Origin: an uncultured Candidatus Saccharibacteria bacterium
GTDB taxonomy: Bacteria > Patescibacteriota > Doudnabacteria > UBA920
DNA: 64,000 nucleotides
NCBI GenBank assembly: GCA_964384035.1
Contig: CAYLIB010000006.1
Location: forward strand, 13,336 to 77,335
Direction: 5' to 3'
The notes under the pieces were generated by a model that was given only the letters and a program-made list of their open reading frames with translations, was not told the DNA's origin and made no database searches. The position numbers and the translations under genes are program-made. Below are positions 2,520 to 64,000 of the stretch, in pieces. Each line of letters starts with the position of its first letter. Position 1 is the first letter of the stretch.

Positions 2520-2524
2520 ATAAT

Positions 2525-2556: not shown

Positions 2557-2621
2557 CATCACCCAGACTTCTATATACAATTGCCTATTAATTCAAACAG
2601 GACATATATGTGGAGGGAAGT

Positions 2622-46384: not shown

Positions 46385-46551
46385 TACAAAAATCAAAAAC
46401 TTCCCCCAGGGAATTCCGGTAAGATCCCGGAGCTGTGCCGCAACCGTAATGTCCGCCTTAGGCGGAACAAGTCGGGTCGCTGAGAGAAGTTAAACAGTTT
46501 CCCGAGCAGGACAAATTTAAAAAAACTTCTCGGGAAAGGGGAGTTTTTTTA
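46385..46551 (+). promoter_or_regulatory. cobalamin-riboswitch-like leader with terminator/antiterminator expression platform
   Basis: cAGGGAAuuCCGGUAAGAUCCCGGAGCUGuGCCGCAACCGUAA matches the Cbl core (GGGAA...GGUGnAAnUCC...GCnG.CCCGCnACUGUAA). P6-like hairpin UCCGCC-UUAG-GGCGGA. Degenerate B12-box-like AAGUCGGG. Mutually exclusive pairings gagaagtt/aacttctc versus tttcccgag/ctcgggaaa. GGGGAG RBS then T7 then ATG. Confidence 0.5.
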
Positions 46552-46552
46552 A

Positions 46553-48697: not shown

Positions 48698-48700
48698 AAA

Positions 48701-50368
48701 ATGATCACAGAGTTCGAAAAATTTACATATTATGACCTAAGGTTAGAAGCCGAAAGTGGACGACTTCCTAAAATTACTGGAAGAGAAGACGAGGTCTCGC
48801 GTTTGCTCAGAATAATTTCCAGTACCCTGGGTAGGCACAGTATTCTTGTTGCCGAAAGTGGGGTAGGGAAGAGTTCTATTATTTTCGGTTTAGCCGAACG
48901 TATTGCTCGTACTGGTTGGAGAAAAGGTTTGCCTGTGGCTATGCTTGAACCAAACTCCGCATCTCGTATTGGTCTGCTGAGAGAGGCAGGTTTAGGTCCG
49001 TATTTAAGAGCATTTGAATCGCTGACGAGGGGGGTAATTGTCCTCGATGGTTTTGGCGAATGGGTTTATGAGCAACCCAACTCTCTTTCAAATTGGAACA
49101 GTCTCATAAAACCCCTTCTAAATCTAGATGAAGTTTCTCTCATACTCGCTATGCAACCCAAAGAGTTAGAGTGGCTCAAGGTTCATAAAAGTCATTTTGT
49201 CGCACGGTTTCAAATTGTGAACATCGATCCTCTCCCTATGAAAGATTCACGAACAGTATTAATAAATACTGCTAAGAGGCTAGAGAATGAAACCCTAAAA
49301 ATAGAGGCAAGCGCTATTGAAGCAGCTTTAAATTTACCCGAAAGATTTAAAAGGTTGGGTCCATTACCTAAGTCAGGTATGGCTCTTTTGGACGAAGCGG
49401 TTACAGAGTTAAGGATTAATCCGCTATCTTTTAAATTTAATAAGGTGAATCATGAAATCATAGAAAGAGTAACAGCAAGTAAACTTCATTTACCCTTAGC
49501 AAAAGTAGCAGCAGAGGATATTGCGCGTATAAAAAGTTTGCCCGAGGTTTTAAAGAAGAGTGTTCTTGGTCAAGATAAGGCTATTTCAGAAATAGCTGGG
49601 TTCATTCAGAGATCCAAGTTAGGTTTAAGAAACCCAGATAGACCCCTGGCATCATTCTTGTTACTAGGACCCTCTGGTGTAGGTAAGACCGAAACAGCTA
49701 AGACTCTATCTGACATAGTTTTCGGTGGTACGGGTTTTCTAAGACTCGATATGTCAGAGTTCGCGGCAGAACATAGTGTAGCGAGGTTAATTGGTTCACC
49801 TCCTGGTTATGTAGGGTATGATGTTGGGGGTCAGTTAACAACTCATCTTGAATCACACCCGCATTCCTTAATACTTTTAGATGAAATAGAGAAAGCTCAT
49901 CCAAAAATTTTCGACATATTCCTTCAGGTTCTAGATGATGGACGCCTAACATCAAGTCAGGGAGTCGTAATAGACGCAACCCAATGTATATTTATAGCCA
50001 CCTCTAACCTAGCAGTGGATGAAATCCTAAAAGTAGAGAATTCGGATACAGCTGAATACTTAAGTACTAATATTATTCCTGAGCTTCAAAAGTTCCTTAG
50101 GACGGAATTCTTGAATCGTTTCGATTCTTTAGTTGTTTTTAAGAAACTAAGCGAAGAATCACTAGTTCAGATTGCCTTAAAGGAAATTACTAAAATGGAA
50201 GATCGGTTTAAGAATAAGGGTATAAAATTTAAAGTCGATCCTGTTGTCTTAAAGTCAGTAGTTGCCTCGCAGTCAGACCCACGTTTTGGGGCTCGTCCAA
50301 TAAAACGTCTAGTAGAGAAAATTTGCGAAACAGCAGTAGTAGATAGTTTATTAAATTCAAATCAATGA
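48701..50368 (+). CDS. Clp/Hsp100-family double-AAA+ protein lacking N- and M-domains, with degenerate D1
   Basis: D1: GESGVGKSS Walker A, but Walker B is VIVLDGFGEW (Glu to Gly). D2 intact: GPSGVGKTE, LILLDEIEKAH, sensor ATSN, GARPIKR. Strong similarity to ClpA/ClpB D2 (SVARLIGSPPGYVGY, QVLDDGRLT). Confidence 0.85.
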   Translation: MITEFEKFTYYDLRLEAESGRLPKITGREDEVSRLLRIISSTLGRHSILVAESGVGKSSIIFGLAERIARTGWRKGLPVAMLEPNSASRIGLLREAGLGPYLRAFESLTRGVIVLDGFGEWVYEQPNSLSNWNSLIKPLLNLDEVSLILAMQPKELEWLKVHKSHFVARFQIVNIDPLPMKDSRTVLINTAKRLENETLKIEASAIEAALNLPERFKRLGPLPKSGMALLDEAVTELRINPLSFKFNKVNHEIIERVTASKLHLPLAKVAAEDIARIKSLPEVLKKSVLGQDKAISEIAGFIQRSKLGLRNPDRPLASFLLLGPSGVGKTETAKTLSDIVFGGTGFLRLDMSEFAAEHSVARLIGSPPGYVGYDVGGQLTTHLESHPHSLILLDEIEKAHPKIFDIFLQVLDDGRLTSSQGVVIDATQCIFIATSNLAVDEILKVENSDTAEYLSTNIIPELQKFLRTEFLNRFDSLVVFKKLSEESLVQIALKEITKMEDRFKNKGIKFKVDPVVLKSVVASQSDPRFGARPIKRLVEKICETAVVDSLLNSNQ

Positions 50369-50595
50369 AGATTCAAGAGCAAATAGAGAAAGAGTTCAAA
50401 GAAGCTCTGTTAAACATAAAACCGTATGTAAGTTTAAAGTGGTTACAAAAGGTAGAAGCAAGATTTAAATCTCATAAAGAAGAGCTGGATTTAATAGAAG
50501 CAGGTGAAGAAATACGTAGACATAAGAAATCACAATTCTCAGAGATTCTACCCCCTCAGTATTTTGAGCAAATATTTATGAAAAAAAATGATTGA
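50365..50595 (+). CDS. hypothetical small helical protein
   Basis: 76 aa. Start overlaps the upstream stop (ATGA). Stop overlaps the next gene's start. Confidence 0.5.
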   Translation: MKIQEQIEKEFKEALLNIKPYVSLKWLQKVEARFKSHKEELDLIEAGEEIRRHKKSQFSEILPPQYFEQIFMKKND

Positions 50596-51904
50596 AAAAT
50601 CTGTACTCATCGGAGAAAACGTTTTTAGAAATAATACCACCCCTATTCGCTATAAAGACGCAGACAGGCTTAGGCATATGTATATGGTAGGCAAAACAGG
50701 GTCCGGGAAATCCAGTCTCTTTTTGCAAATGTGCTTACAAGACATATTAGCTTTCAAAGGGGTCTGCTTCATAGACCCCCACGGCGATGCGATTAACTGG
50801 CTTCTTTCAAGAATTCCAAAAGGAAGACTGGAAGACGTTGTGGTTATTAAACCTGGAGATGTAAATTTCCCAGTAGGGCTAAATTTACTAGAAGTCTCCG
50901 CAGGAGAAAATAGTAGTTTTTTGGTGAGTGAACTCATCAATATTTTTTATCGTCTGTTCGACCCAGAAAAAACCGGTATCATAGGTCCCCAATTCGAACA
51001 CTGGCTCAGAAACGGAGCGCTTACAGTAATGGCAGACCCAAACGGAGGGACGCTTTTAGAAATTCCCAAACTCTTTTCCGACAAGAAGTTTGAAAGCTAC
51101 AAAAGACAGTTCATAAAAGATCCGCTCGTTATGGAATTTTGGCAATCCCAGATGTCTAAGACGTCAGATTTTCACCGAAGCGAAATGTTAAATTACTTTA
51201 CTTCAAAGTTTGGCCAGTTTATGGGAGTGGAAACCTGCAGGAACATAGTTGGTCAAACCAACAGCACTATAAATTTTCAGGAAATTATAAATAAAGAAAA
51301 AATATTACTAGTTGACCTAAGCAAAGGCTCACTTGGTGAGCTCACGAGTAAATTTTTAGGCTTAGTACTTCTTGCAAAGCTCCAGTCCGCCGTGCTAAGT
51401 AGAGCACAGATAGGGGAGGGTGAAAGAATTCCCTTTTATTTATACGTAGACGAATTCCAAAATTTTACCACCGACACATTTCTTTCCATGCTGGCCGAGT
51501 CTAGAAAATATGGCCTAGCTGTTCATGTTACCAATCAGTATATTACCCAGTTACCCGAAGCTGTCCGCAAGGCAGTTCTAGCTAGCGTGGGTACGACTCT
51601 CTCTTTCCAAGTCGGTGCCGAGGATGCGGAGATTCTTTTACCGGAATTTTCACCTTTCTCGCTAGAAGACCTAACCAACTTACCAGCAAGAAATTTTCTA
51701 CTAAGACTAATGGTGGACGGTAGGACCACAGAAGCTTTCTCCGGCCAGACCATTAGCCACGACACCCTGCTTTCAAAGCATCTTGCTTTCAGTGAAGAAG
51801 AAACCGTCCCACAAGAACTAGTTCTAGAAGCATCAAGATTAATGCACTCCACTCCTGTAGCCTTGGTGCAAAAACAAATCCTCTCCCGTCTAGGTATAAA
51901 TTAG
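50588..51904 (+). CDS. AAA_10/DUF87-type P-loop ATPase (TraG/VirD4/HerA-FtsK superfamily)
   Basis: Walker A MVGKTGSGKSS followed by FIDPHGD. Walker B-like FYLYVDEFQNF with RKYGLAVHVTNQYITQL (TraG-D_C-like block). No TM segment. Confidence 0.75.
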   Translation: MIEKSVLIGENVFRNNTTPIRYKDADRLRHMYMVGKTGSGKSSLFLQMCLQDILAFKGVCFIDPHGDAINWLLSRIPKGRLEDVVVIKPGDVNFPVGLNLLEVSAGENSSFLVSELINIFYRLFDPEKTGIIGPQFEHWLRNGALTVMADPNGGTLLEIPKLFSDKKFESYKRQFIKDPLVMEFWQSQMSKTSDFHRSEMLNYFTSKFGQFMGVETCRNIVGQTNSTINFQEIINKEKILLVDLSKGSLGELTSKFLGLVLLAKLQSAVLSRAQIGEGERIPFYLYVDEFQNFTTDTFLSMLAESRKYGLAVHVTNQYITQLPEAVRKAVLASVGTTLSFQVGAEDAEILLPEFSPFSLEDLTNLPARNFLLRLMVDGRTTEAFSGQTISHDTLLSKHLAFSEEETVPQELVLEASRLMHSTPVALVQKQILSRLGIN

Positions 51905-51957
51905 TCTTGTAAAATTATGAGGAAATACATACATTTAGTACTAGTAAAGGAGGACTT

Positions 51958-52128
51958 ATGGGTTTCGATCTATCATGGACTCATGTGGAAAATCAACTTC
52001 TGCGTGAGTTGGTCAAACAATACTTGGGCTATCTATTGCTCGGACTCGTAGGAGTTGTTGTGGGGTTATTACTAGTAACCCTAGTAAAGCTCTGTTTATG
52101 GCTTTATGCTTTCAACTTAATGTGCTAA
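51958..52128 (+). CDS. 56-aa hydrophobic peptide (candidate modified-peptide precursor or small membrane protein), not in ORF track
   Basis: AAGGAGG RBS 6 nt upstream. MGFDLSWTHVENQLLRELVKQYLG followed by Leu/Val/Gly-rich core ending LMC. Own terminator immediately downstream. Confidence 0.5.
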   Translation: MGFDLSWTHVENQLLRELVKQYLGYLLLGLVGVVVGLLLVTLVKLCLWLYAFNLMC

Positions 52129-52147
52129 ACAAAGCACTTTTTTATTT
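52122..52147 (+). terminator. attenuator-like terminator directly after the small peptide gene
   Basis: gtgct-aaacaa-agcac followed by ttttttattt. Overlaps the stop codon. Confidence 0.5.
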
Positions 52148-52215
52148 GCCCAGTTATACTTATAATCCATAGGTTAGGGAACCACAGTACTTTTCAAAAT
52201 TCAAGGAGAAAAACA

Positions 52216-53586
52216 ATGAAGATAGCGCTCATTATGTCGCACGGGAAAGTCCATGGTAAAAACGGAATTTTCCAAAAAGCTCTGCGTTACGCTCCGCTCA
52301 CTCTACCTACACTGGCAGCTCTCGTACCTGAAGAGCTTAAAGCGGAAATAACCATCTATGACGAAGGCGTCGAAGATGTAAGCATAGACAAAATTGATGC
52401 AGACATTGTCGGGCTCTCATGTATAACGGGGATAGCTTACCATGTCTACGAAACCTCTGCTCGGCTAAGACAGCGAGGAATTAAAACCGTAATTGGTGGA
52501 TTGCACGCAACACTCTGTCCGACAGAAGCAATGAATTACGCAGACTGTGTTATAACCGGTTTTGCAGAACGAACGTGGCCACAAGCTTTAAGAGATTTTA
52601 GTAATGGTCAGCTTAAAAGTCGTTACGACCAAGAGCAGCCATTCAAATTCGAAGGTATACCAATACCAAGGCGTGATCTCTTAAAGAAAAACGCCTACAT
52701 CACTATGAATACAATTCAGGCAACCAGAGGGTGCTACCAAAAATGCGACTTCTGTGTGGTGCCCAATGCATGGGGGAGTTTCTGGTCCAGACCCGTTCGC
52801 GAAGTCATCGAAGAAATCGAAAAGTTAGACAAAGGTCCATTTCTGTTTCTCGATCTTTCACCAAACGAAGATCCCGAGTACCTAAAGAAGCTCTACAAAG
52901 AACTCATCCCTTTGAAACGCATTTGGGGTGGTCTTGCGACCATCGAAATCTCACGAGATAAAGAACTTCTGAATCTCGCGAATAAAAGTGGTTGTCGCGG
53001 TCTGCTCATTGGTTTCGAATCAGTAAACCAAGAGACTCTTCGTTTGATGGGTAAAGGCAAGCTTAATGTAGCCGACCAGTACTATGAAGACGTAAAGCGT
53101 CTACACGGCGCAGGTATCGGAATTAATGGTTGTTTTGTTTCGGGGCATGACGGAGATGACGAAAGTTGTTTTGAAAGAACGTTAGAATTCGTGGATCGTG
53201 CAAAAATCGACCTACCTCGATTTTCAATCGTAACGCCTTTTCCAGGGACGGCACTTTATAACAAACTCAAGAGTCAAAATCGTTTGCTAATGGATGGTGT
53301 TTCTGGGTGGCAACATTACAACTCGCAAGAAGTAGTCTTTAAGCCCATTGCCATGACACCCGACCAACTACTCGCAGGTCACCAGTGGCTCTGGCGGGAG
53401 GCATATCGTCTTCCTGTTATAGCCCGTAGGTTCTTAGGTTCACCGGCGCTTCACACCGTAATGGCTTTAAAGCACGTTCTGCCAGCCAATATGGCGTACA
53501 GGTTCTTTGCTGACAAATTACCAGAACTAATGATGACCACCTGCGAAACCCCCTCCACCTCCCTCCCCCTGCTCCTGTCCCAGTAG
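52216..53586 (+). CDS. class B (N-terminal B12-binding domain) radical SAM enzyme, paralog 1
   Basis: B12-binding-like N-domain. CYQKCDFC (Cx3Cx2C). Shared blocks LIGFESVN and TPFPGT with the other two paralogs. Confidence 0.85.
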   Translation: MKIALIMSHGKVHGKNGIFQKALRYAPLTLPTLAALVPEELKAEITIYDEGVEDVSIDKIDADIVGLSCITGIAYHVYETSARLRQRGIKTVIGGLHATLCPTEAMNYADCVITGFAERTWPQALRDFSNGQLKSRYDQEQPFKFEGIPIPRRDLLKKNAYITMNTIQATRGCYQKCDFCVVPNAWGSFWSRPVREVIEEIEKLDKGPFLFLDLSPNEDPEYLKKLYKELIPLKRIWGGLATIEISRDKELLNLANKSGCRGLLIGFESVNQETLRLMGKGKLNVADQYYEDVKRLHGAGIGINGCFVSGHDGDDESCFERTLEFVDRAKIDLPRFSIVTPFPGTALYNKLKSQNRLLMDGVSGWQHYNSQEVVFKPIAMTPDQLLAGHQWLWREAYRLPVIARRFLGSPALHTVMALKHVLPANMAYRFFADKLPELMMTTCETPSTSLPLLLSQ

Positions 53587-53721
53587 TATTGAAATTAAGC
53601 ATAGTGAGGGGTGGCGCGGAGGCGGATCCCTTAAGTAGCGCGCAGTGCATCCGAGCACTACTTAAGGTGCCGCAGTGACAGGACCCCGGTGTATTAGAAA
53701 TGGATGTGAAATGGAGATTAG

Positions 53722-55107
53722 ATGAGAGATTCATTTAAAATAACGCTTATCGTTCCGCACGTTGGTCGTAAAGACCCAACCAACTTAAAAGAGTATGTAA
53801 GAACTTGGCAAATGCCGAGTCTCACTATGCCCATCCTCGCGGGTCTCACCCCAAAAGACGTCGAGATTAAATTCTTCGACGAACGCGTCGAGTTCATAGA
53901 CTTCGAAGACAAGACTGATCTCGTAGCCATCACTGTCGAAACATTCACTGCCAAGCGCGCCTACGAAATTTCTGCAATCTACAAAGCACGCGGCACACCT
54001 GTCGTTATGGGTGGCTACCACGCTATGCTAAAACCCGCCGAAGTTTCGCACTTCACAGACGCGTGCATTATAGGTTTTGCAGAAAGTATCTGGCCACAGG
54101 TAGTTAAAGATGCACGCAGTGGAAAGCTACAATCCGTCTACGAGAGAAGCTCTTCAAGCCCCGTAACTTTCGGTATGCCGGACCGCAGAATTTTAGGTAA
54201 GAAAAATTATTTACCTTTGGTGCTCTCAGAAACCGGCCGCGGTTGTCCGCACTCCTGCGGTTTTTGCAGTATTACCTCTGCAACTAAAGCAACCTACTGG
54301 CCTCGGCCCGTAGACGAAGTAGTAAAAGATTTGGCGGAAGCGAAATCTATCGGCATTGGAAGTGACGTCTTCCTCATAGACGACAACATCGTCGGTAATC
54401 CCCGTTACGCTAAGGAACTTTTTACCGCGTTAAAAGATTTGCGTATCCGCTGGTTCAGTCAGGGTACGCTAACTATGGCGCGCGACAAAGAACTTCTAAA
54501 GCTAATGGCCGAAAGTGGATGTATGGGAGTACTAATTGGCTTCGAGTCTGTAAACGAAAAAACTCTTAAGAGCTTCGGAAAAGATTTTAATATTCCGCTC
54601 TTAAGAGATATGAAAGAATCCGTAAAAAGAATCCACGACTTTGGAATCTGCATTTACGGCACTTACATTTTCGGTTACGACGAAAGCCTGGAAGACATTC
54701 TCGCGACCGCACATTCGGCCGAAGACCTAGAGCTTTTTATGGTCGCCTTCAACCATATGATTCCTTTCCCAGGGACTAGGTTGTTTAAGGAACTAGAGGA
54801 TTCTGGGCAACTTACCGACACCGAGTGGTACCTCGATCCCAGTTATCGTTTTGGCCAAACACCCTTTACACCAAAACTCCTCTCACCTAGAGAACTTCAC
54901 GACGCCTGTATTCAAGCAAGGAAGCATTTCTACCGCTATACAAGTATTCTGAAGCGCAGTAGTAACTGGAAGGGGAACCTAACCACTCCCAGCAAAGCTC
55001 TTCGCTATTTCATAATCAACTACCTCCTTCACCGCGAGGTAGGGGAGAAAGATGGCCTACCCTTAGGTAATCTGCCAGCAAGACCGCAATTACTGGCTCC
55101 CGCGTAG
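53722..55107 (+). CDS. class B radical SAM enzyme, paralog 2
   Basis: GRGCPHSCGFCSI (Cx3Cx2C). N-terminal B12-binding-like domain. LIGFESVNEKTL, IPFPGTRLF. Confidence 0.85.
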   Translation: MRDSFKITLIVPHVGRKDPTNLKEYVRTWQMPSLTMPILAGLTPKDVEIKFFDERVEFIDFEDKTDLVAITVETFTAKRAYEISAIYKARGTPVVMGGYHAMLKPAEVSHFTDACIIGFAESIWPQVVKDARSGKLQSVYERSSSSPVTFGMPDRRILGKKNYLPLVLSETGRGCPHSCGFCSITSATKATYWPRPVDEVVKDLAEAKSIGIGSDVFLIDDNIVGNPRYAKELFTALKDLRIRWFSQGTLTMARDKELLKLMAESGCMGVLIGFESVNEKTLKSFGKDFNIPLLRDMKESVKRIHDFGICIYGTYIFGYDESLEDILATAHSAEDLELFMVAFNHMIPFPGTRLFKELEDSGQLTDTEWYLDPSYRFGQTPFTPKLLSPRELHDACIQARKHFYRYTSILKRSSNWKGNLTTPSKALRYFIINYLLHREVGEKDGLPLGNLPARPQLLAPA

Positions 55108-55131
55108 CCAAAACTACGCGGTTTTTATTTT
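55100..55131 (+). terminator. intrinsic terminator after rSAM paralog 2
   Basis: ccgcgtag-ccaaaa-ctacgcgg followed by tttttatttt. Confidence 0.55.
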
Positions 55132-55180
55132 CCCAAATAATCTATATAATATGTGTCATCGAAATAAGGAGGAAATATTT

Positions 55181-56296
55181 ATGTCCAAATATGCTTTTGA
55201 AATTGCGGATGAATCTCACGAAAGTGGGTTAAGAGAAATTTTGAGACAAACAGAAATGCCTGGTAATATCTCACTCTCATTTAGGAGAGAGCCAAATTTT
55301 TTCATTGCTGAAAAAACCGGCAACATCTCAAGTGATGTAGTGGCTGTTAGGGATCTCGATAAAAATAAGCTGGTAGGAGTAGGTGCAAGATCAATACGAA
55401 AAAACTATATAAGAGGTAAAGCAAGTAACATCGGGTACCTAAGTGCTTTAAGAGGGTTACCTGAAATCTTAGGCGGAACGCTTTTGGTCAGAGGTTTTCG
55501 TTACCTAAAAAATCTTCATAAAAAGGGAGAAGTTCCTTTCTACTACACGACCATTTTAGATGAAAATTCCTGGGCAAAGGAAATGCTCACTAGTAAGCGT
55601 TGCGGACTCCCAGTGTACGAAGATCAGGGTATATTAGTAACGCATATGCTACCTCTATATAAGAGACGTTGGAAGCAAAATAATACTCCAGGATTAAATA
55701 TAGTAAGAGTCGGTAGAGTGCCTTACCTCATTCGGCAGGTGTACGAAGTAGTTAACGAATTCAATCGTTACTATGATTACTCGGCTGTAGTGAGTTTTGA
55801 TTCTCTTAGGTCACCTGAACAGTTTTATCCAGGGTTCTCTACAGAAAATCTATTCGCAGTATTCAGGGACGGTCTCATTACTGCTACGCTCGGAGTGTGG
55901 GATCAATCCAATTTCAAGCAAACCGTAGTAACTGACTACAAGGGGTTCTTGAGTTATTTAGCCCCTTTGTCTAGTTTAGGCTCAAAACTCGGTCTAATGC
56001 CGGAATTGCCGAAGATCGGCGGGTCATTTCCTATTCTCTACGCCTGCTTTGTTACTTTAAAACAGGGATATGAGGCGGATATGGCAGTTTTACTGTCCGA
56101 GGTATTGCGACTATATTCAAATCAAGGTTATTATTATTTGCTTGCTGGGAGTCCAAAAGGCAGTCCTGTTGAAAAAATATTCGAATCACAAGAATCCTTT
56201 AGGATCACCAGTACGCTTTACAGGGTTTACTGGGAAGAAGACGCTATCTTTCTTCCAAAAACTCTGGTTCCATATCCGGAAATTGCAACGCTTTAA
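55181..56296 (+). CDS. hypothetical protein (possible GNAT-like fold, weak)
   Basis: AAGGAGG RBS before ATG 55181 (ORF track 55151). 371 aa, no confident motif. Confidence 0.55.
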   Translation: MSKYAFEIADESHESGLREILRQTEMPGNISLSFRREPNFFIAEKTGNISSDVVAVRDLDKNKLVGVGARSIRKNYIRGKASNIGYLSALRGLPEILGGTLLVRGFRYLKNLHKKGEVPFYYTTILDENSWAKEMLTSKRCGLPVYEDQGILVTHMLPLYKRRWKQNNTPGLNIVRVGRVPYLIRQVYEVVNEFNRYYDYSAVVSFDSLRSPEQFYPGFSTENLFAVFRDGLITATLGVWDQSNFKQTVVTDYKGFLSYLAPLSSLGSKLGLMPELPKIGGSFPILYACFVTLKQGYEADMAVLLSEVLRLYSNQGYYYLLAGSPKGSPVEKIFESQESFRITSTLYRVYWEEDAIFLPKTLVPYPEIATL

Positions 56297-56318
56297 ACTT
56301 AATAGGAGGCTACTGAAA

Positions 56319-57035
56319 ATGGCAATAGAGCATGCACGAGTTCTTACTTCGTCACTCTTGAGGTGCGATAGAAGAAAAATGTTCAGTCTCATGGAAGAGT
56401 GCTATTTGGGTATGAGCTGGGTTGAATTCAATCGGGACCTCGCCGAAAAAGACGAAGTAATGATACTCAGCGAAGAAGGGGAGATAGTTGGATTCTCTAC
56501 ATTGGTCACTTTTGACTTTTTAGTCGGTGAACAAATTTGTACAGCCCTTTTTTCTGGTGATACCGTCGTTAGTAAAGATAAGCGAGTCAATATTGGTTTT
56601 GCAAAGGAAATTGTTTCCTACTTCTATCAGAACATAGACTTGGGAAAAAATACTCCTGTCTATTGGACTCTCATAAGCAAAGGATGGAGAACTTTCAGAA
56701 TTCTGCCTTTTCTCTTCAGAGAGTTCTATCCAAACCCCTTTGCGAAAATTGAGAATTCGAGGCTAAAAGAAGTCAGGGATGCATTCGGAAAACACAAATA
56801 CCCGAAGTACTATAAGGAGAGAACCGGTTTAATCCAGTTTCCTACACCAGTTCAAAGACTTAAACCGCGGTCAGATGAAGCAGAATGCAATAGGGATGAT
56901 CCGTATGCAAAGTTCTTCTTCGAAAAAAACCCTGGATACTTAAACGGAGATGAATTAGTTTGTGTAGCAGAAATAAGTATCGAAAACTTCACCCGCTCCA
57001 CCATTAAACTCTTAGGCGATAAATTGCATAAGTAG
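56319..57035 (+). CDS. hypothetical protein (possible GNAT-like acyltransferase, weak)
   Basis: AGGAGG RBS before ATG 56319. ORF track 56070 is a spurious upstream extension overlapping the previous gene. VMILSEEGEIVGFSTL...VNIGFAKEI pattern is GNAT-like. Confidence 0.5.
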   Translation: MAIEHARVLTSSLLRCDRRKMFSLMEECYLGMSWVEFNRDLAEKDEVMILSEEGEIVGFSTLVTFDFLVGEQICTALFSGDTVVSKDKRVNIGFAKEIVSYFYQNIDLGKNTPVYWTLISKGWRTFRILPFLFREFYPNPFAKIENSRLKEVRDAFGKHKYPKYYKERTGLIQFPTPVQRLKPRSDEAECNRDDPYAKFFFEKNPGYLNGDELVCVAEISIENFTRSTIKLLGDKLHK

Positions 57036-57039
57036 AGAT

Positions 57040-58668
57040 ATGAGAAAAATAACGCACTCCGCTATCTTTGTAAGCTGTTATTCAGCGTACAAATCCTGGG
57101 TAGCTAAAACCGCCTCTGTTGAAAATTCCCAGCAGAGGCTTTTATTTTCTATCCTAAATAAAAACAGAAATACCGTTTTTGGAAAAAAGTTTGGTTTTGA
57201 AAAAATACAGAGCATTAAACACTTCCAAGATCAAGTATTCCCACAAGTTTATGAAGACCTTGAGAGTTATATCAAGCGCATGCTTTCAGGAGAAATAGAA
57301 GTGCTTACCGGCGAGAGGGTGCTTCTCTTTGAGCCCACAAGTGGATCAGTATCTGCCTGCAAATACATACCTTATACAAAAGGTTTGCGACAAGAATTTC
57401 AAGCTGGTATAAAGCCCTGGTTATATCTTCTTTATCGTGACTACCCGTCTATCCGCAGTGGCGTACATTACTGGTCTATAAGTCCAAGAGTAACTAGAGG
57501 GCTCACCCAAGGAGGTATTCCCATTGGCTTCGAGAAAGATACCGAATATTTAGGATTACTCTCGCGTGTATTTCTAGATAGAGTTATGGCTTTACCAGGT
57601 GAGGTCACGCATGTTCCTCACATCGAGAACTTTCGCTACCTAACATTGTTATTCCTGCTATCGCATAAGGATCTGACTTTTATATCCCTATGGAATCCCA
57701 CCTTCTTAAAAATTCTTCTCGAAGCCCTCGTTGACTTTAGAGAAAGTTTCATAGAAGACATAAAGTCAGGTTCGTTAAACCCACCTGTAAAGTTATCAAA
57801 AACTCTTAAGGATTATTTTCTTTGGAAATTAAACTTTTGTCGTAGAAGGTCTGTCGAAGTAGTATCTCTGCTTCGTGAGAATCAAGATCCTTATTCCTTA
57901 GCAGGCGCACTCTGGCCTAAGCTATCCCTGATTAGCTGCTGGTCAGACGCAAATGCAAAGGATCAAGCAATAAAGCTTCAAAGAAAATTTCCTTACACAC
58001 CTTTTCAACCAAAGGGTTTAATTTCTACCGAAAGTTTCGCAACATTCCCATATCCTGGTTTAGAAGGAGGAGTGCTTTCTCTAGGTTCCCATTTTTTCGA
58101 ATTTGAGAAGAATGGAAAATACTTCTTGGCCCATGAGATCAGTCTAGGTGAGACTTACTCGTTAGTTGTTACTACAAGCGGGGGACTATATCGTTACCAA
58201 ACAAAAGACCAAGTTAAAATTACGGGGTTTCATAATCAGTGCCCCTCTATGGTTTTTGTTGGTAAAGAAGATTCCATAGTAGATCTAGTTGGTGAAAAAC
58301 TTTCTGAGGGCTTCCTGGTAAAAGTTATGGATGAATTTTTAAATAAATATTCCATAGAACCAGAATTTTGGATGGTCTCGCCGAACCCCATTGGTAACGG
58401 GTATTGTTTGTTTATCAAATCCACTGAAATTCTTCCCGTGAACCTCGCTCTAGAGATAGACATTAAGCTTCGTGGAAGTTTTCACTATTCTTATGCAAGA
58501 ACTTTGGGACAGCTTGAAGAGTTCAAGGTGGTAGCATTGGATAACAATATCAATCCTTCGAAACTCTATCTTGAAACCTGTACGAAACTAGGACAAAAAT
58601 TAGGAGATATCAAACCCAGAAGGCTTCATCAAAGTAATGTATGGTATAAAGTATTTAGTGCAACCTAA
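57040..58668 (+). CDS. GH3-family (acyl-acid amido synthetase-like) adenylating enzyme
   Basis: N-terminal pattern FGKKFGFEKIQSIKHFQDQVFPQVYEDLESYIKRMLSGEIEVLTGERVLLFEPTSGSVSACKYIPYT matches the bacterial GH3 (PF03321) N-region (FGKKY..I.T...FQ..VP...YED..PYI.R...GE...L......F..SSGTT...K.IP). Confidence 0.6.
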   Translation: MRKITHSAIFVSCYSAYKSWVAKTASVENSQQRLLFSILNKNRNTVFGKKFGFEKIQSIKHFQDQVFPQVYEDLESYIKRMLSGEIEVLTGERVLLFEPTSGSVSACKYIPYTKGLRQEFQAGIKPWLYLLYRDYPSIRSGVHYWSISPRVTRGLTQGGIPIGFEKDTEYLGLLSRVFLDRVMALPGEVTHVPHIENFRYLTLLFLLSHKDLTFISLWNPTFLKILLEALVDFRESFIEDIKSGSLNPPVKLSKTLKDYFLWKLNFCRRRSVEVVSLLRENQDPYSLAGALWPKLSLISCWSDANAKDQAIKLQRKFPYTPFQPKGLISTESFATFPYPGLEGGVLSLGSHFFEFEKNGKYFLAHEISLGETYSLVVTTSGGLYRYQTKDQVKITGFHNQCPSMVFVGKEDSIVDLVGEKLSEGFLVKVMDEFLNKYSIEPEFWMVSPNPIGNGYCLFIKSTEILPVNLALEIDIKLRGSFHYSYARTLGQLEEFKVVALDNNINPSKLYLETCTKLGQKLGDIKPRRLHQSNVWYKVFSAT

Positions 58669-58698
58669 ACTGCAACCAGATTGCAGTTTTTTTTATTT
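58667..58698 (+). terminator. intrinsic terminator after GH3 gene
   Basis: aaactgcaa-ccagat-ttgcagttttttttt. Confidence 0.65.
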
Positions 58699-58745
58699 CT
58701 GGGATAATTAAACCGCTGTCCATAAAAAATCAAATAGGAGGAAAT

Positions 58746-60095
58746 ATGCACGTAACTTTTATCGTTCCGCAAATCGGAATGCCCACTAACAAGAAGTATC
58801 TCAAGTCATGGCAAATGGAACCACTGGCTATAGCTATCCTTGCTGGGCTTACCCCCAAGGACATTCAGGTGTCATTCTTCGACGAACGAATAGAGCCAAT
58901 AGAGTTAAATAACAAAACTGATCTAGTCGCAATAACTTGCGAAACCTACAACGCCAAACGCGCATACGAGATATCTCGCATGTATCACACTAGAGGTATT
59001 CCCGTTGTTTTGGGTGGTTATCACCCAACTCTACTTCCCGAAGAAGCAATGCAGTACGCAAGTACAATTGTTGTGGGTCCTGCCGAAGACTGTTGGGAAA
59101 AAGTTTTAGAAGATGCCCGCAAAGGAGAGCTTAAAAGAGTTTACGCAAGAGATAAGTCTCTTCCGATGCGATTTGGTATCCCAGATAGAAGTATCTTCAA
59201 AAAAAAGTCCTATTTCGGAATTCACTGTGTAGAAACGAGTAGGGGATGCCCTCTCTCTTGCGACTATTGTTCCATTACCGCAGTCAACGGCGGAAATTTC
59301 TGGCGGAAACCCGTAGATCAACTAATCGAAGAAATAAAAAACCTTCGTACAAAAAATGTCTTCTTCATAGACGATAACTTTATCGGGAATATACGTACTG
59401 CTAAAGAAGTTCTAAAAGCGCTTATTCCTCTAAATATTCGCTGGTTCTCTCAGGCTACTATAAACGTAGTCAGAGATAAAGAAATTCTGAGACTTCTCGA
59501 GAAAAGTGGATGTGTGGGTTTATTAATTGGTTTTGAATCTACCAATCCTAATACTCTCATGGGAATGGATAAGCCAGTAAATATTAAAGCAGGAAGTTAT
59601 GGTGATGTTATAGAAAGACTTCATAGAAAAGGTATAAGTATCTATGGGGCATTTATTGTCGGTTACGATAATGACCAAGAAGGAGACTTCGATTCCGCAG
59701 TGGATCTTGCCATAAAAAATAGACTTTTTATGTCGGCCTTCAACCATCTCGTACCCTTTCCCGGCACAAAGCTATACAACAAGCTCGAAAAAGAGGGCAG
59801 GCTTTACTATCCAAAGTGGTGGTTAGATCCAGCATTTCGTTTCGGCGACGCTCCCTTCGAACCCCAAAACTTCACCCCAGCGCAATTAAAAGAAATTAGT
59901 CTGGAAGCTAGGCAGCGTTTCTATGAAATTGGTTCAATCTGGAGGAGGCTTTATAACTGGAGGGTTTACAGAAAGCGTCCCAAGATGCTCTATCCTTATT
60001 TGCTTATGAATTTTTTACTCAAAAACGAAGTTACTAAACGCCAAGGCTTCCCCTTGGGTAAGCACAATACCTACCCCCAACCTCTTTTTAAATAA
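58746..60095 (+). CDS. class B radical SAM enzyme, paralog 3
   Basis: SRGCPLSCDYCSI (Cx3Cx2C). B12-binding-like N-domain. LIGFESTNPNTL, VPFPGTKLY. Confidence 0.85.
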   Translation: MHVTFIVPQIGMPTNKKYLKSWQMEPLAIAILAGLTPKDIQVSFFDERIEPIELNNKTDLVAITCETYNAKRAYEISRMYHTRGIPVVLGGYHPTLLPEEAMQYASTIVVGPAEDCWEKVLEDARKGELKRVYARDKSLPMRFGIPDRSIFKKKSYFGIHCVETSRGCPLSCDYCSITAVNGGNFWRKPVDQLIEEIKNLRTKNVFFIDDNFIGNIRTAKEVLKALIPLNIRWFSQATINVVRDKEILRLLEKSGCVGLLIGFESTNPNTLMGMDKPVNIKAGSYGDVIERLHRKGISIYGAFIVGYDNDQEGDFDSAVDLAIKNRLFMSAFNHLVPFPGTKLYNKLEKEGRLYYPKWWLDPAFRFGDAPFEPQNFTPAQLKEISLEARQRFYEIGSIWRRLYNWRVYRKRPKMLYPYLLMNFLLKNEVTKRQGFPLGKHNTYPQPLFK

Positions 60096-60176
60096 AGGAG
60101 GTTATTTTATTGACTTAATTTATATAGAGTGGTATCTTGTCGTATCCACGACGCTACAATTTTTGGAGGATTAAAT

Positions 60177-60929
60177 ATGTCAGATAAACACGCCGATTTA
60201 CTTGATTTTCTAGCGGAAATCAAGGACGATCCTGAAATGAAAGCACATTTAGCCAACAGAAAACCGACGATAATCTTGGTTGGTCTTTCTGGGAAATCCT
60301 GCCTCGAAGTAATTCAAGCAAACAAGGAAGCAGGCATTCACTCTACCGTTGTTGTTTATAATGACTCTTTGCGTGAAGACTTGGCAAACTCGTTAGGATT
60401 GAAGTCGTTGACTTCGGGGCGAGACAGGGTTAGTGGGGGAGAATTGGTTAAAATCAAGACTTTCCCCGTTACAGAAACTCCTAATTATCAGTGGACGTCC
60501 GAATTAGTAGACCCCGGTGAATTCAGAGTCGCTGGAATTGTATTTGCAATTGCCAAGTATGATCCCGCGAGCCGCTGGGATGATGCAGGCTATTATCTGA
60601 ATCGGGACAAGCCTCAGTTCGAAAGAATACCTGCCTGGTACATCCATCAGGTTTTAGCGGATTCTTTGGGTCTAGCAATAACACTCGTAAACGCCTATTA
60701 CGATGAACTCACAGAAAGTGATAGTTTCATATTAGTAGGCCAAGATAGCAAAGACGAAACAACCCAAATACAATTCGTCACTGATTTCCTAGGTACTGTA
60801 GTTGCCGGCTACTTTGGTGGTCTATTTATGTATTACGGGGCTGATAAAGTTGATGTGCAGAACAACGAAACGGAAGCCCTGCAGTCAATAGAGCACCTAA
60901 GGAAGGCTGTTATTGAATCGAAAAAATAA
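60177..60929 (+). CDS. hypothetical protein with Nif11-like N-terminal segment
   Basis: GGAGG RBS before ATG 60177. ADLLDFLAEIKDDPEMKAHLANRK...EVIQANKEAGIH resembles the Nif11 leader-type domain (LKAFLEKVKxDxxLQEKLKAA...VVAIAKEAGF). Confidence 0.5.
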   Translation: MSDKHADLLDFLAEIKDDPEMKAHLANRKPTIILVGLSGKSCLEVIQANKEAGIHSTVVVYNDSLREDLANSLGLKSLTSGRDRVSGGELVKIKTFPVTETPNYQWTSELVDPGEFRVAGIVFAIAKYDPASRWDDAGYYLNRDKPQFERIPAWYIHQVLADSLGLAITLVNAYYDELTESDSFILVGQDSKDETTQIQFVTDFLGTVVAGYFGGLFMYYGADKVDVQNNETEALQSIEHLRKAVIESKK

Positions 60930-60958
60930 AAGACACAACTATGTGTCTCTTTTTATTT
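60927..60958. terminator. bidirectional terminator (convergent genes)
   Basis: aaaaaataaaagacaca-actat-gtgtctctttttattt. Confidence 0.65.
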
Positions 60959-62126
60959 GCCCGTCATATCTAATACCCACACTTGTCATTTCCTTACGAG
61001 AGACCCCAAATTTTATCGACTTTATAAATAAGTATAAAAAAATATACGGAAGCATAATGGCTGGTAAGGGGTCATTGATTTTAAAGATAACATCCTTACC
61101 GTTTATGAAATCATTTAGCCATAGCTTTAAACCATTAATATTCCTTACTTTTCCGAACAAATAAAAGATCATCATTAACTTTATCTGTGGAAACTTGCTT
61201 GTTTTTTCTATTATTAATCCTTTCTTTCCGGTATAAATAGAGTTAGCAAAAATTTTAGGTTTTTCGAAAAATAAATTAATACCACTTGTAGGTCTTGGAT
61301 TGCATTCAATCGGGTATAATTTACCCATCTCATTTTCTATGAAATCAAAGCCAAAATTCCCGGTTAAATTAAGTTTCTTGCCAATAAGTTCTATAGTACG
61401 AAGTACGTTTTTATTTTCAACGGCACGGTAAAGAAAATGAGCCCCAAATTTTAGATGGTAAGGTGAACTATAAGTTACATGATTTAACATTTCACCATTT
61501 TGAAAACAACTATAAGAACAGAATTCCTTCCCCGCTATAAACTCCTGAACCACCCAGGGATTGTCTGGGCCTATATTCAGACCGGAAACATTGCTTATGG
61601 AATCCACCTTTCTTACATAAGCACCAAATCTAGAATAAACAGGTTTAATAAACAACTCATGAGTAGTACTGCTTAAAACATCTCTCATCTGCCCCACACT
61701 TTCTACAAGAATTGTTTTCGGAGTATTTACACCCAATGATCTCGCATACTCTATAAAAGTAAATTTATTATGTAATAAATTCAAAGTCTCTATTGTAGAA
61801 CAAAATAGCTCGCACCCCAAAGGCAGTCTGTCCTTGAAACTAGCCAAGTAAAAAATCTCTTCACACACAGGCACTATTAGATCAATGTTTTTTTCCTTAA
61901 CTAAGTTGCATATAAACTTTTCATAACCAACTAAATCCGTTGAGGGTGGGGGAGTAGTTATATACTCATAAATATTATTTGAAAAACTAACAAGTGTATT
62001 TTTAATACAGTCAGCACCAAAAACCACATAACCCGCTTCCCTAAAAAGCCTCGTCACCCCCAAAGCCACCGGCGACCTCCCTCCAGTAATCAAAACCCTT
62101 CCCCGTTGCCCAACCCCGAAACTCAT
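60939..62126 (-). CDS. ATP-grasp family ligase
   Basis: N-terminal RVLITGGRSPVALGVTRLFREAGYVV (pre-ATP-grasp Rossmann). Central ATP-grasp-like region (VVQEFIAGKEF, ECNPR). Confidence 0.6.
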   Translation of the reverse strand: MSFGVGQRGRVLITGGRSPVALGVTRLFREAGYVVFGADCIKNTLVSFSNNIYEYITTPPPSTDLVGYEKFICNLVKEKNIDLIVPVCEEIFYLASFKDRLPLGCELFCSTIETLNLLHNKFTFIEYARSLGVNTPKTILVESVGQMRDVLSSTTHELFIKPVYSRFGAYVRKVDSISNVSGLNIGPDNPWVVQEFIAGKEFCSYSCFQNGEMLNHVTYSSPYHLKFGAHFLYRAVENKNVLRTIELIGKKLNLTGNFGFDFIENEMGKLYPIECNPRPTSGINLFFEKPKIFANSIYTGKKGLIIEKTSKFPQIKLMMIFYLFGKVRNINGLKLWLNDFINGKDVIFKINDPLPAIMLPYIFLYLFIKSIKFGVSRKEMTSVGIRYDGQIKRDT

Positions 62127-62160
62127 GATTTTGTCTTTTAATTAGAATTAATAGTAGCAG

Positions 62161-62247
62161 GTTATCGGGAAGAATATTTTCTCCAGATGCGACTTGAGGG
62201 GAAGGGCCCCCTCCGGAGCAGATGGAGAAAATATTCTTCCCAATAAC
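62161..62247. repeat. large imperfect palindrome (24-bp arms, one mismatch) with GC-rich core in a divergent intergenic region
   Basis: gttatcgggaagaatattttctcc (62161-62184) versus ggagaaaatattcttcccaataac (62224-62247). Centre has gagggg-aagggcc-ccctc. Confidence 0.65.
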
Positions 62248-62312
62248 CGACATTAGAGTAGTTGCATCAAAGTAAGTCAAAATCTATACTACTACCAAAG
62301 TAAATTATACAT

Positions 62313-62828
62313 ATGAACGAACCAAAAAAACTATATAGAGTAAAAGAAGGTCAAACAATCGCCGGTGTAGCAACTGGCCTAGCAAGGTATTTTAACGTAG
62401 ATACCGTTTTAGTGAGAGTGGTATTTATCGCTTTAGTCTTCGCTGGTGGTAGCGGAGTATTGTTATATATCATTTTAGCAATAATCATTCCAGAAGAGCC
62501 TAAATCTACCACCTCGCATACAAGTAGTACTAACCATGAAGTAAACTCTGATACCGTAAAAGAGTTCGTAAATTCCGTAGGGGATAACGCCCAAAAAATT
62601 GCAGAAGATATAAAAGAGAGAATCAATCAAAATACATCGACAAATTCCCAAGGGGAAACCGAAAAACAAAATACCACAAGAAATATAGTAGCTATGGTTA
62701 TTATTGCAGTTGGTGTTCTTGCGCTATTCAATTCTATAACCGGATTTCATTTGTTCCGCTGGGAACTTTTTTGGCCTATAGTATTAATTTTTATTGGTGG
62801 AATAATTCTCTTCAAGAAAGGACATTAG
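62313..62828 (+). CDS. PspC-domain membrane protein
   Basis: LYRVKEGQTIAGVATGLARYFNVDTVLVRVVFIALV is the PspC domain. Two TM helices. Confidence 0.75.
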   Translation: MNEPKKLYRVKEGQTIAGVATGLARYFNVDTVLVRVVFIALVFAGGSGVLLYIILAIIIPEEPKSTTSHTSSTNHEVNSDTVKEFVNSVGDNAQKIAEDIKERINQNTSTNSQGETEKQNTTRNIVAMVIIAVGVLALFNSITGFHLFRWELFWPIVLIFIGGIILFKKGH

Positions 62829-62829
62829 T

Positions 62830-63117
62830 ATGTCAGGGTTCCCAGTAAAAAAATACCATTCAGCAGGTCGTTATTTCCTAGGACTTATAATAATTTTTTT
62901 TGGACTGGCTAGCTTGCTTGAGAAGTTAGGGTATATAAATTTAGCACTCTGGAAGAAAGAGTATTTTTTACCCATTTTAACCATCTATATTGGGCTGAGT
63001 ATGCTAGGCAAGGGTAAAAAGTTTTCTGACCCCTTAGGCATTATTCTTGGCCTCGGTGTTATTGCCATTCTCTTGCATGTTTTAACAGGTGGAAGTTTCT
63101 GGTCTAAATTTTACTAG
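62830..63117 (+). CDS. hypothetical small membrane protein (PspC-associated)
   Basis: 95 aa, three hydrophobic helices. Starts 2 nt after the PspC stop. Confidence 0.5.
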   Translation: MSGFPVKKYHSAGRYFLGLIIIFFGLASLLEKLGYINLALWKKEYFLPILTIYIGLSMLGKGKKFSDPLGIILGLGVIAILLHVLTGGSFWSKFY

Positions 63118-63179
63118 ACAGAATTCGCTAGGGGTATTATCTTAAATCTCCAAACAGATTCTAAAACCAATGGAGGCAT

Positions 63180-63656
63180 ATGCAAGAATTACCTTTAGAT
63201 CCTGCAAACGCAGGTCCGTTCACTCAACCTTTCCTTACACTTACTTTTGTGGATGGAACTCGTTGGCATATAGACGTAGGTGGGAATTTAGACCCATACA
63301 TTGTTGGATACTCTCGAATTCTTAAAATTTACGAGAGCCTCACGGAAGATGAAAAAAGCCAAAAAGGAGTAGATTCACTTTTCAGCGAGGGGGTAAATTG
63401 GCTAAGCCGAGCAACACCGCTACTCCTCAAAATGATAGATGATTTAGCACGTATTAACCCCTGTTACACTGTCTCGTCAGTCTACTCTTATACAGGTACA
63501 GCTGGTCCCGGTTTTATTTTGAGACAGGGTGCATTCTTCAAGAGATTCGATCTCAGCCCAAAAGTACCTCATCCTATCCCTATACGTATTGGAGATAGGG
63601 ACGTTAATGAATACCTGCTGAGACTCGGATTTCTATCATTCCAAGACAAACAATAA
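63180..63656 (+). CDS. hypothetical protein
   Basis: GGAGG RBS. 158 aa. Terminator agacac-tacc-gtgtctgttttttt at 63654-63681. Confidence 0.5.
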   Translation: MQELPLDPANAGPFTQPFLTLTFVDGTRWHIDVGGNLDPYIVGYSRILKIYESLTEDEKSQKGVDSLFSEGVNWLSRATPLLLKMIDDLARINPCYTVSSVYSYTGTAGPGFILRQGAFFKRFDLSPKVPHPIPIRIGDRDVNEYLLRLGFLSFQDKQ

Positions 63657-63809
63657 AGACACTACCGTGTCTGTTTTTTTATGCATCCTTAAATTTCAGG
63701 TACAAGCTATTAATAGAAGATTCGCCCATACTTAGAAAAGCATCAGACAAAAAGAATTACATCTTCTCCTCATAAAAATTATCCAAAATAAAAAAGACCC
63801 TATCAGAGT

Positions 63810-64000
63810 CTAGAAAATAATTAAGATATTGGCATGAATTCCAAAATCTTCGTAAAGTCTAGCACCGCTGGGTTCTCTCAGGCCACCATCGCTATGTAAT
63901 TCATACTGCTCAGAAGATATTCGTAGTTTACCTTCGATATCAGTCACGCCACCAACCACTCTACAAGATGTCATCCCGCATTCTCTTATAATTTTACTTA
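63810..64000 (-). CDS. possible 3' end of a minus-strand gene running off the window (unknown)
   Basis: Open frame on the minus strand from the window edge to TAG at 63810-63812 (...VVGGVTDIEGKLRISSEQYELHSDGGLREPSGARLYEDFGIHANILIIF). Confidence 0.25.
   Translation of the reverse strand, partial: SKIIRECGMTSCRVVGGVTDIEGKLRISSEQYELHSDGGLREPSGARLYEDFGIHANILIIF

Follow-up and report, generated by a model that had tools for sequence, protein, structure and literature searches.

A widespread and undescribed gene cluster of a GH3 ligase, GNAT-fold proteins and B12-type radical SAM enzymes with a possible role in amide-linked lipid biosynthesis

The only characterised bacterial enzyme of the GH3 family is OlsH, which converts a free fatty acid, ATP and ornithine to N-acyl-ornithine and acts together with OlsI in the GH3-dependent ornithine-lipid pathway of Singulisphaera acidiphila (PMC12493201). 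Neither the OlsH paper nor a 2026 review mentions GNAT or B12-type radical SAM partners of GH3 enzymes. Here we report a gene cluster in which a GH3-family ligase is encoded beside two GNAT-fold proteins and three radical SAM (rSAM) enzymes. The cluster lies in a 64,000-nucleotide stretch of DNA from an uncultured Candidatus Saccharibacteria bacterium (GenBank assembly GCA_964384035.1, contig CAYLIB010000006.1, positions 13,336 to 77,335 of the forward strand), the whole of which is called the window below. The contig is metagenomic and is also on record in JGI 3300005002 and a Logan assembly. An earlier note, drawn from the letters of this DNA alone, had proposed that an undescribed enzyme cluster is present here, and our analysis agrees: none of its components falls into a characterised NCBIfam family, and no description of a GH3–GNAT–rSAM cluster was found in the literature. 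The cluster is widespread, undescribed and an unusual combination of families.

The conservation of the cluster was investigated by a genome scan with one genome per species, which yielded 590 relatives of the GH3 protein; the best 80 loci were examined by tblastn and clustering of open reading frames (ORFs). These loci belong to more than 15 phyla, including Chloroflexota, Planctomycetota, Acidobacteriota, Clostridia, Desulfobacterota, Omnitrophota, Nitrospirota, Bacteroidota and the Candidate Phyla Radiation (CPR). All four families (GH3, GNAT, tandem GNAT and rSAM) are found together in 60 of the 80 loci, and the 47 that span at least 15 kb include 39 such cases. The single GNAT of 238 amino acids (aa) is encoded in 73–75 of the 80 loci, nearly always directly upstream of GH3, while tandem GNATs and rSAMs are present in 66–69 and 64–65 loci, respectively. 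Judged from these sequence comparisons, the conserved unit is composed of two rSAMs of different subfamilies (named rSAM-A and rSAM-B), the tandem GNAT, the GNAT and GH3, to which the window adds a paralog of rSAM-B.

The unit is built from two sub-modules, a dyad of GNAT and GH3 and a triad of rSAM-A, rSAM-B and tandem GNAT. Dyad and triad are divergently transcribed in four loci (L016, L053, L061 and L090), and each is also found apart from the other. The triad stands without the dyad in L091, and the dyad stands without rSAMs in L078, L079, Kingella and Burkholderia; in Acinetobacter, which likewise has no rSAMs, the tandem GNAT is kept with the dyad.

The GH3 protein is the best-defined member of the cluster, and its earlier assignment as an amide-bond-forming enzyme of this family holds, with amide formation predicted from its sequence. 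It matches PF03321 (E 2e-43, 149 bits against a cutoff of 23.6) and GH3_M (PF23571; E 6e-17, 62 bits against 23.6), and its profile matches the structures of JAR1 and other plant GH3 enzymes with an E-value of 3e-42. Three nucleotide-binding motifs are invariant in 20 homologs, formed by S101, G102, K108, P111 and Y112, by K325, G326, T330 and E331, and by Y384, R385, Y386 and D390. More than 1,600 homologs were scored, with about 40% identity in the best 120 listed; the named homologs among these 120 span many phyla and are annotated as GH3 family or hypothetical only. The OlsH model (NF052613) was rejected for this protein, with 38 bits against a cutoff of 620 over residues 23–115 only, and no OlsI-like alpha/beta-hydrolase is encoded in the window or recurs in the related loci.

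All three rSAMs of the window (named rSAM1, rSAM2 and rSAM3 in gene order) own a CxxxCxxC motif, CYQKCDFC, CPHSCGFC and CPLSCDYC, respectively, and match Radical_SAM (PF04055) above the Pfam cutoff, as expected for the three paralogous enzymes that the earlier note had recognised. Its assignment of an N-terminal B12-binding domain to all three stands for two of them: PF02310 scores above cutoff in rSAM1 (36.1 bits) and rSAM3 (36.6 bits), but below it in rSAM2 (20.2 vs 32.1 bits). The domain layout is that of class B rSAMs, with an N-terminal B12-binding region and a CxxxCxxC core, and cobalamin binding is predicted from sequence. The identity is 47% between rSAM2 and rSAM3 and 36% between rSAM1 and rSAM3. 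Clustering across the related loci separates two subfamilies, A (rSAM1 type) and B (rSAM2/3 type). Subfamily A, found as one copy per locus, is represented by 51 members from 50 loci. Subfamily B comprises 86 members from 53 loci; 43 of them lie directly upstream of a tandem GNAT, and the others include extra copies. In total, a locus contains between zero and five rSAM genes, most often two. Copies of rSAM-B after GH3, like rSAM3 in the window, are also present in L004, L020, L021, L028, L033, L039 and L071; by position and sequence, rSAM2 is assigned as the core B copy and rSAM3 as an extra, accessory tailoring paralog.

None of the three rSAMs reaches the cutoff of a curated NCBIfam rSAM subfamily, and all scores are far below. 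Membership in HpnJ (80–88 vs 578 bits), BchE (63–77 vs 481), TIGR04072 (49–80 vs 360) and HpnR (25–42 vs 650) was rejected, as was membership in the Tes and BzaD subfamilies, whose cutoffs are not reached. In a sequence search of the PDB, the closest solved relatives are QCMT, AprD4, CysS and TokK, all at weak E-values, and the best match of rSAM-A is QCMT (9ccb) at only E 3e-12. On the NCBIfam scores and the PDB sequence matches together, the known lipid and cofactor rSAM subfamilies were rejected.

The two remaining core proteins were assigned at the level of the fold. Neither the 371-aa nor the 238-aa protein has a significant match or a model in Pfam or NCBIfam, and sequence-profile searches of the PDB gave marginal GNAT matches for both (E 0.016–0.55). 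AlphaFold models built from homolog alignments are confident, with predicted local distance difference test (pLDDT) scores of 88.5 and 94.1, and a fold search with these predicted structures places both proteins in the GNAT alpha/beta fold, in line with the GNAT-like traits noted before. Acyl and acetyl transferases that act on protein N-termini are among their fold neighbours. The C-terminal extension of the 238-aa protein contains five invariant residues (N204, G210, E212, L213 and C215). When 1.84 billion clusters at 50% identity were searched with a tandem GNAT profile, 3,224 representatives matched at E ≤ 1e-10; the size of the family is about 1,800–3,200 distinct representatives at this identity level. 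The connection of the tandem GNAT to rSAM-B extends to a natural fusion of the two (P0352, 817 aa, 44% identical to the rSAM-B of the window), which is present in two independent assemblies (L088, 8001–10454, and L089, 5053–7506) within a cluster of seven rSAM genes, the fusion counted.

The accessory genes of the related loci provide hints to the substrate. A Pfam scan of 120 operon-linked proteins identified seven membrane desaturases of the FA_desaturase family, six Rieske oxygenases, five PAP2_3 phosphatases or phosphotransferases, four di-iron enzymes of the AurF type and four SnoaL/DUF4440 proteins, together with eight extra rSAMs. PAP2-desaturase fusions occur in three loci, and a Tes/TrsS-like rSAM occurs in five (106–145 bits against cutoffs of 450 and 490). 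In Acidobacteriota the accessory genes sit between GNAT and GH3, resulting in an 11-gene operon, and transporters of the major facilitator superfamily (MFS) flank L088, L090 and L091.

Several carriers are cultured. A mobilizable IncFIB/IncFII plasmid of Citrobacter portucalensis (L093, NZ_CP134684.1, 51417–63512) encodes the complete module with five rSAM genes, in the order GNAT, GH3, rSAM-A, rSAM-B, tandem GNAT, two further rSAM-B and PAP2; one more rSAM and a fatty acid desaturase are encoded on the opposite strand. PLSDB contains no other plasmid of this kind, and this version was not found in 5,426 Escherichia coli genomes. In Kingella potus, GH3 is joined by a Rieske gene, one unassigned gene, GNAT, a FabA/ApeI-like protein, a ketosynthase and SnoaL, and Burkholderia arboris has GNAT, desaturase, GH3 and Rieske genes, as seen by tblastn only in a high-GC locus where ORF calling is noisy. 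In Acinetobacter baumannii (L092, NZ_CP064203.1, 1509021–1518454; these records are labelled plasmids and are of chromosome size), GNAT–GH3 and the tandem GNAT are interleaved with an HlyD–MFS–OEP efflux pump and followed by a SurE-like gene, and no rSAM is present.

From the families, folds, motifs, synteny, sub-modules and accessory content observed, we infer the substrates, the order of steps, the rSAM chemistry and the lipid nature of the product as follows. The dyad of the 238-aa GNAT and GH3 would be the part that forms the scaffold. GH3 would adenylate a carboxylic acid and join it to an amine to give an amide; a hydrophobic acyl acid, such as a fatty acid, is the most likely substrate. 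The GNAT would add or prepare a second acyl or amine partner. The triad would serve as an oxygen-independent tailoring unit on the same molecule, combining radical and probably cobalamin-assisted C–H functionalisation (methylation or C–C bond formation) with acyl transfer dependent on coenzyme A (CoA), and the extra rSAM-B copy of the window may add one tailoring step. The product would be an amide-linked amphiphile that is retained in the membrane or exported. In aerobic lineages, Rieske, desaturase and AurF enzymes may act in addition to or instead of the rSAMs.

That the product comes from a non-ribosomal small-molecule pathway of some kind, lipid-like or soluble, we consider probable. For the narrower proposal, in which the module makes and modifies a lipid-like small molecule with an amide link and not a ribosomal peptide, we see roughly even chances. 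The lipid-like amide is favoured because desaturases, PAP2_3, Rieske, AurF, Tes-like rSAMs, MFS or efflux proteins, and FabA with a ketosynthase recur among the partners; the earlier note had named a lipid or other small molecule as its second choice, and these accessory genes fit that choice. A more specific version seems less likely than not: the product would belong to a new class of amide-linked lipids or amphiphiles, in which rSAM-A and rSAM-B would anaerobically alkylate or cross-link carbons of the hydrocarbon part or the head group, with rSAM-B and the tandem GNAT perhaps performing Elp3-like acyl-CoA radical chemistry, and with Rieske, desaturase or AurF enzymes replacing the rSAMs in aerobes. 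Several observations weigh against a lipid. The accessory genes are found in only 17 of the 80 loci and not in the window, FA_desaturase-fold and Rieske enzymes also act on non-lipid substrates, and the arginine hydroxylase GntB is one of the desaturase's best neighbours in NCBIfam. The GNAT fold matches are generic, with protein N-terminal acetyltransferases scoring equal to lipid-related enzymes. Methylation by the rSAMs is not assured, because the B12-binding region of rSAM-B is below the Pfam cutoff and the closest solved structures include AprD4, which is not known to use cobalamin. Finally, the carriers apparently include loci labelled CPR (Kaiserbacteria, Nealsonbacteria and Moranbacteria) and Nanoarchaeota. 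Such small-genome lineages largely lack fatty acid synthesis and would therefore require scavenged acyl substrates.

The same chemistry could also yield a soluble, non-lipid metabolite, with GH3 linking an amine or amino acid to an organic acid of small size, the rSAMs and GNATs tailoring the conjugate and a transporter exporting it. Such a metabolite could be a signal, an osmolyte, an antimetabolite derived from an amino acid or a compound resembling a siderophore. Plant GH3 enzymes conjugate jasmonate, indole-3-acetic acid and benzoates, B12-rSAMs commonly tailor small antibiotics (CysS and TokK, with PhpK-type enzymes among the weak matches here), AurF-type N-oxygenases and the GntB-like relative of the desaturase act on amines or amino acids, and export is suggested by the efflux pump interleaved in A. 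baumannii and by the MFS transporters elsewhere. We nevertheless regard a soluble product as rather unlikely, since PAP2_3, the PAP2-desaturase fusions, membrane-anchored accessory proteins, the Tes-like rSAM and FabA with its ketosynthase point to a long-chain hydrophobic substrate, and the one characterised bacterial GH3 uses fatty acids. Modification of a non-peptide macromolecule, either an envelope polymer or, in the fashion of Elp3, tRNA or rRNA, seems very improbable. The adjacency of rSAM-B to the tandem GNAT in 43 loci and their fusion in P0352 recall the rSAM–GNAT layout that Elp3 is generally known for, and penicillin-binding protein and PspC/LiaF envelope genes are present in the window; but these envelope genes are not conserved neighbours, RNA-binding or glycosyltransferase partners do not recur, and Elp3 lacks a B12 domain and its models are matched by none of these proteins.

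A RiPP, a ribosomally synthesised peptide that carries post-translational modifications, had been the first choice of the earlier note, which pictured proteusin- or polytheonamide-type tailoring of the small hydrophobic peptide encoded at the head of the gene run. In its general form, the B12-rSAMs would C-methylate this 56-aa product or a precursor encoded elsewhere, and GH3 and the GNATs would add amide or acyl decorations. Some evidence points this way: the closest solved rSAM is a protein glutamine C-methyltransferase (QCMT), weak partial matches to the rSAM models ApyD and TIGR03975 exist, the fold neighbours of the GNATs include enzymes acting on protein N-termini, the 56-aa ORF is kept in the closest relative (L083), and M28 peptidases are encoded in two loci. 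The note had also said what would count against it, namely absence of the small ORF from syntenic homologs, and absence is what we found: the ORF has no homolog in or beside the 80 syntenic loci, and because of this the RiPP reading is not supported. Furthermore, no other small ORF upstream of the operons recurs across the 80 loci, and no conserved family was found among 2,416 intergenic ORFs of 18–90 aa. The RiPP C-methyltransferase model TIGR03975 was rejected at 19.6–23.4 bits against 281.85 for rSAM2 and rSAM3, with no match for rSAM1; ApyD scores 39–67 against 750 bits, and the match to QCMT covers the generic rSAM core. Neither the 56-aa nor the 250-aa protein of the window has a Nif11 match at E ≤ 10, which also leaves the Nif11-like N-terminus proposed for the latter unconfirmed, and no NHLP domain was seen. 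No leader peptidase or exporter is encoded in the window, the 120 operon-linked accessory proteins contain the two M28 peptidases and no recurrent ABC exporter, and the partners that do recur are lipid-type enzymes. We therefore judge a RiPP or protein modification very improbable.

An anti-phage defence system was rejected on the PADLOC result for the core proteins: no defence model is matched by the rSAMs, the GNATs or GH3, nor by the 250-aa protein and the ATP-grasp protein that follow them. The genes might also be mere neighbours without a shared function, as the terminator-like hairpins between some of them and a mosaic nucleotide identity to L083 would allow. The synteny statistics contradict this, since the four families remain neighbours in more than 15 phyla with identities of only 25–55%, and together with the fusion and spacers of 4 and 22 nucleotides they make chance adjacency extremely improbable.

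Within the window, the genes of the cluster form a run on the plus strand (51958–60929) that is met by a convergent ATP-grasp gene on the minus strand, as determined by ORF listing and hidden Markov model scans; the positions and common direction of the genes given in the earlier note are those found here (Table 1). The two short spacers lie among the three central genes, with 22 nucleotides between tandem GNAT and GNAT and 4 nucleotides between GNAT and GH3. The internal terminators described before were located between several genes, the stronger terminator-like hairpins being at 55100–55121, 58667–58689, 60079–60103 and 60928–60951, after rSAM2, GH3, rSAM3 and the 250-aa gene, respectively. 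The 56-aa ORF has a AAAGGAGG ribosome-binding site, as reported, and what had been called its attenuator is a weak 5-bp hairpin with a T-run at 52122–52137. Two gene starts were revised. The tandem GNAT, first called as 381 aa, most likely starts at the position in Table 1 because its homologs are 366–371 aa long, and a 321-aa ORF from 56070 is an over-extension of the 238-aa gene that starts at 56319. No rRNA or other Rfam match was found in the window.

Table 1 Coordinates of the cluster and its immediate neighbours in the window.
Feature	Coordinates	Strand	Domains and remarks
Spacer with ribosome-binding site	51905..51957	+	Upstream of 56-aa ORF
56-aa hydrophobic ORF, one predicted membrane helix	51958..52128	+	No Pfam family
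rSAM-A (rSAM1), core	52216..53586	+	PF02310 + PF04055, weak DUF4070, CxxxCxxC
rSAM-B (rSAM2), core, directly upstream of tandem GNAT	53722..55107	+	PF04055
Tandem (double) GNAT-fold putative acyltransferase, 371 aa, core	55181..56296	+	GNAT fold
Single GNAT-fold putative acyltransferase, 238 aa, conserved C-terminal extension; tight GH3 partner	56319..57035	+	
GH3-family ATP-dependent acyl-acid amido synthetase (predicted amide ligase), core	57040..58668	+	PF03321 + PF23571
rSAM-B' (rSAM3), extra subfamily-B paralog after GH3	58746..60095	+	PF02310 + PF04055
250-aa gene, outside module	60177..60929	+	No significant family match
ATP-grasp ligase, PRK06849 type, outside module	60939..62126	-	ATP-grasp_3

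The module is smaller than first drawn. All nine genes of the run and its convergent neighbour had been taken as one cluster, but none of the 80 loci has a counterpart of the 56-aa ORF, the 250-aa gene or the ATP-grasp gene, nor of PspC/LiaF or the genes upstream, and on sequence grounds we judge the first three to be lineage-specific neighbours outside the module. The comparison with the metagenome-assembled genome L083, the closest relative with about 87–89% protein identity, further resolves these boundaries. L083 keeps the 56-aa ORF and the ATP-grasp gene, and its nucleotide identity to the window is a mosaic: 72–88% in the cluster (GH3 72.6%, rSAM2 75.5%, rSAM1 87.5%), 97.3% in the ATP-grasp gene, 97–98% in PspC and LiaF, and 68% in a 158-aa ORF at 63180–63656. 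This mosaic identity over 46424–63862 suggests recombination between related populations. The ATP-grasp protein matches ATP-grasp_3 and, over its full length, PRK06849 (342.3 bits against a cutoff of 406, a close relative below the cutoff). Its family assignment thus stands, while its role in closing the cluster does not: it was rejected as a member for its absence from all related loci, and because its identity to L083 is like that of the downstream PspC/LiaF block, it is assigned to that block. The 250-aa gene, for which no significant match was found in Pfam at E ≤ 10, NCBIfam or PADLOC, is likewise absent from the related loci and was rejected as well. It lies in a clean 840-bp indel (60112–60950) that is missing in L083 and is flanked by the hairpins at 60079–60103 and 60928–60951.

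The 56-aa ORF is unusually well conserved in L083, with 93.6% nucleotide identity, five conservative amino-acid changes and four synonymous ones. The 53 nucleotides before it are 100% identical, and the spacer after it is only 72% identical. This conservation of ORF and spacer suggests a real but lineage-specific small membrane protein or leader and not a general feature of the system, and a promoter or leader of the operon that is specific to this lineage may lie in the spacer before it.

Other genes of the window were noted around the cluster. Directly downstream, a PspC-domain and LiaF-TM pair (62313–63117, +) resembles an envelope-stress module and seems unrelated to the cluster. The upstream block at 46553–51904 (+) encodes a 714-aa protein, a 555-aa ClpB-like AAA+ protein, a 76-aa ORF and a 438-aa HerA/TraD-like ATPase. 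Of these, the AAA+ protein matches the PADLOC candidate defence models PDC-M37B (1e-40) and DolB (1e-29), and the ATPase matches mad8 (6e-13). The block is kept in L083 and not in the other loci, and these matches indicate that it may be a defence system. At 35768–38515 (-), a histidine-phosphatase domain (His_Phos_1) inserted at residues 457–612 (E 7e-26) gives a 915-aa class I aminoacyl-tRNA synthetase (Leu/Ile/Val type) an unusual architecture. The first 2,000 positions of the window (1–2000) have a GC content of 0.50, compared with about 0.39–0.40 for most of the window, and contain a gene for a penicillin-binding protein of class A that has both a transglycosylase and a transpeptidase domain.

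Uncharacterised systems as widespread as this one, whose GH3 clade is present in 590 species-level genomes, are not common. If the product is a lipid, the cluster would represent the second GH3-based lipid pathway after OlsH and would bring new chemistry to the few radical SAM enzymes that are known to modify lipids. Lipids that are still unassigned in anoxic sediments and in uncultured bacteria with small genomes could also be explained in this way; a new lipid class in hundreds of uncultured lineages from many phyla, if true, would be one candidate origin for orphan lipid signals in sediments. The carriers make direct genetics and lipidomics possible, with the Citrobacter plasmid as a complete, rSAM-containing version and K. 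potus, A. baumannii and B. arboris as rSAM-free versions.

Among the described systems, several share single features with the cluster. The class B rSAMs (HpnP/HpnR/HpnJ, GrsA/B, Gmm, the ladderane-cluster family TIGR04072, QCMT, CysS and TokK) resemble the rSAMs here in the B12-binding region and the CxxxCxxC core and in the presence of several paralogs in one cluster, which suggests successive tailoring steps, but every curated model is missed by a wide margin, and a 2026 review of lipid-modifying rSAMs ties no enzyme to GH3 or GNAT. The proteusin and polytheonamide clusters (PoyB/PoyC, with an NHLP/Nif11-type precursor) also contain multiple B12-rSAM paralogs; they differ in owning the conserved precursor, the Nif11/NHLP domain, the RiPP C-methyltransferase, the protease and the exporter that have no match here. 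Long-chain N-acyltransferases such as the FeeM/OlsB type, LasI and N-myristoyltransferase have the GNAT fold, but membership in these families is not seen at the sequence level. Elp3 couples an rSAM to a GNAT-fold module, as the fusion P0352 does, and consists of a radical SAM and a single GNAT/KAT domain that act on tRNA; we take this resemblance, which comes from general knowledge, as a possible lead.

The closest counterparts are the GH3 systems. The plant enzymes (JAR1 and GH3.5/3.6/3.12) are homologous over the full length, and adenylation followed by amidation is the chemistry expected of the window enzyme, which differs from them in being bacterial and embedded in an operon. OlsH and OlsI come nearest in organisation: there, too, a GH3 makes an amide, the first such bond of the lipid, from a free acid and ATP, its operon supplies a second acyl-transfer enzyme, and the nucleotide-binding motifs of GH3 are conserved; here, OlsI is replaced as a partner by two GNAT-fold proteins and at least two B12-type rSAMs. 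Collectively, the cluster is best compared to a GH3-based amide, and possibly lipid, biosynthesis pathway that is extended by radical SAM tailoring towards a product not yet described.

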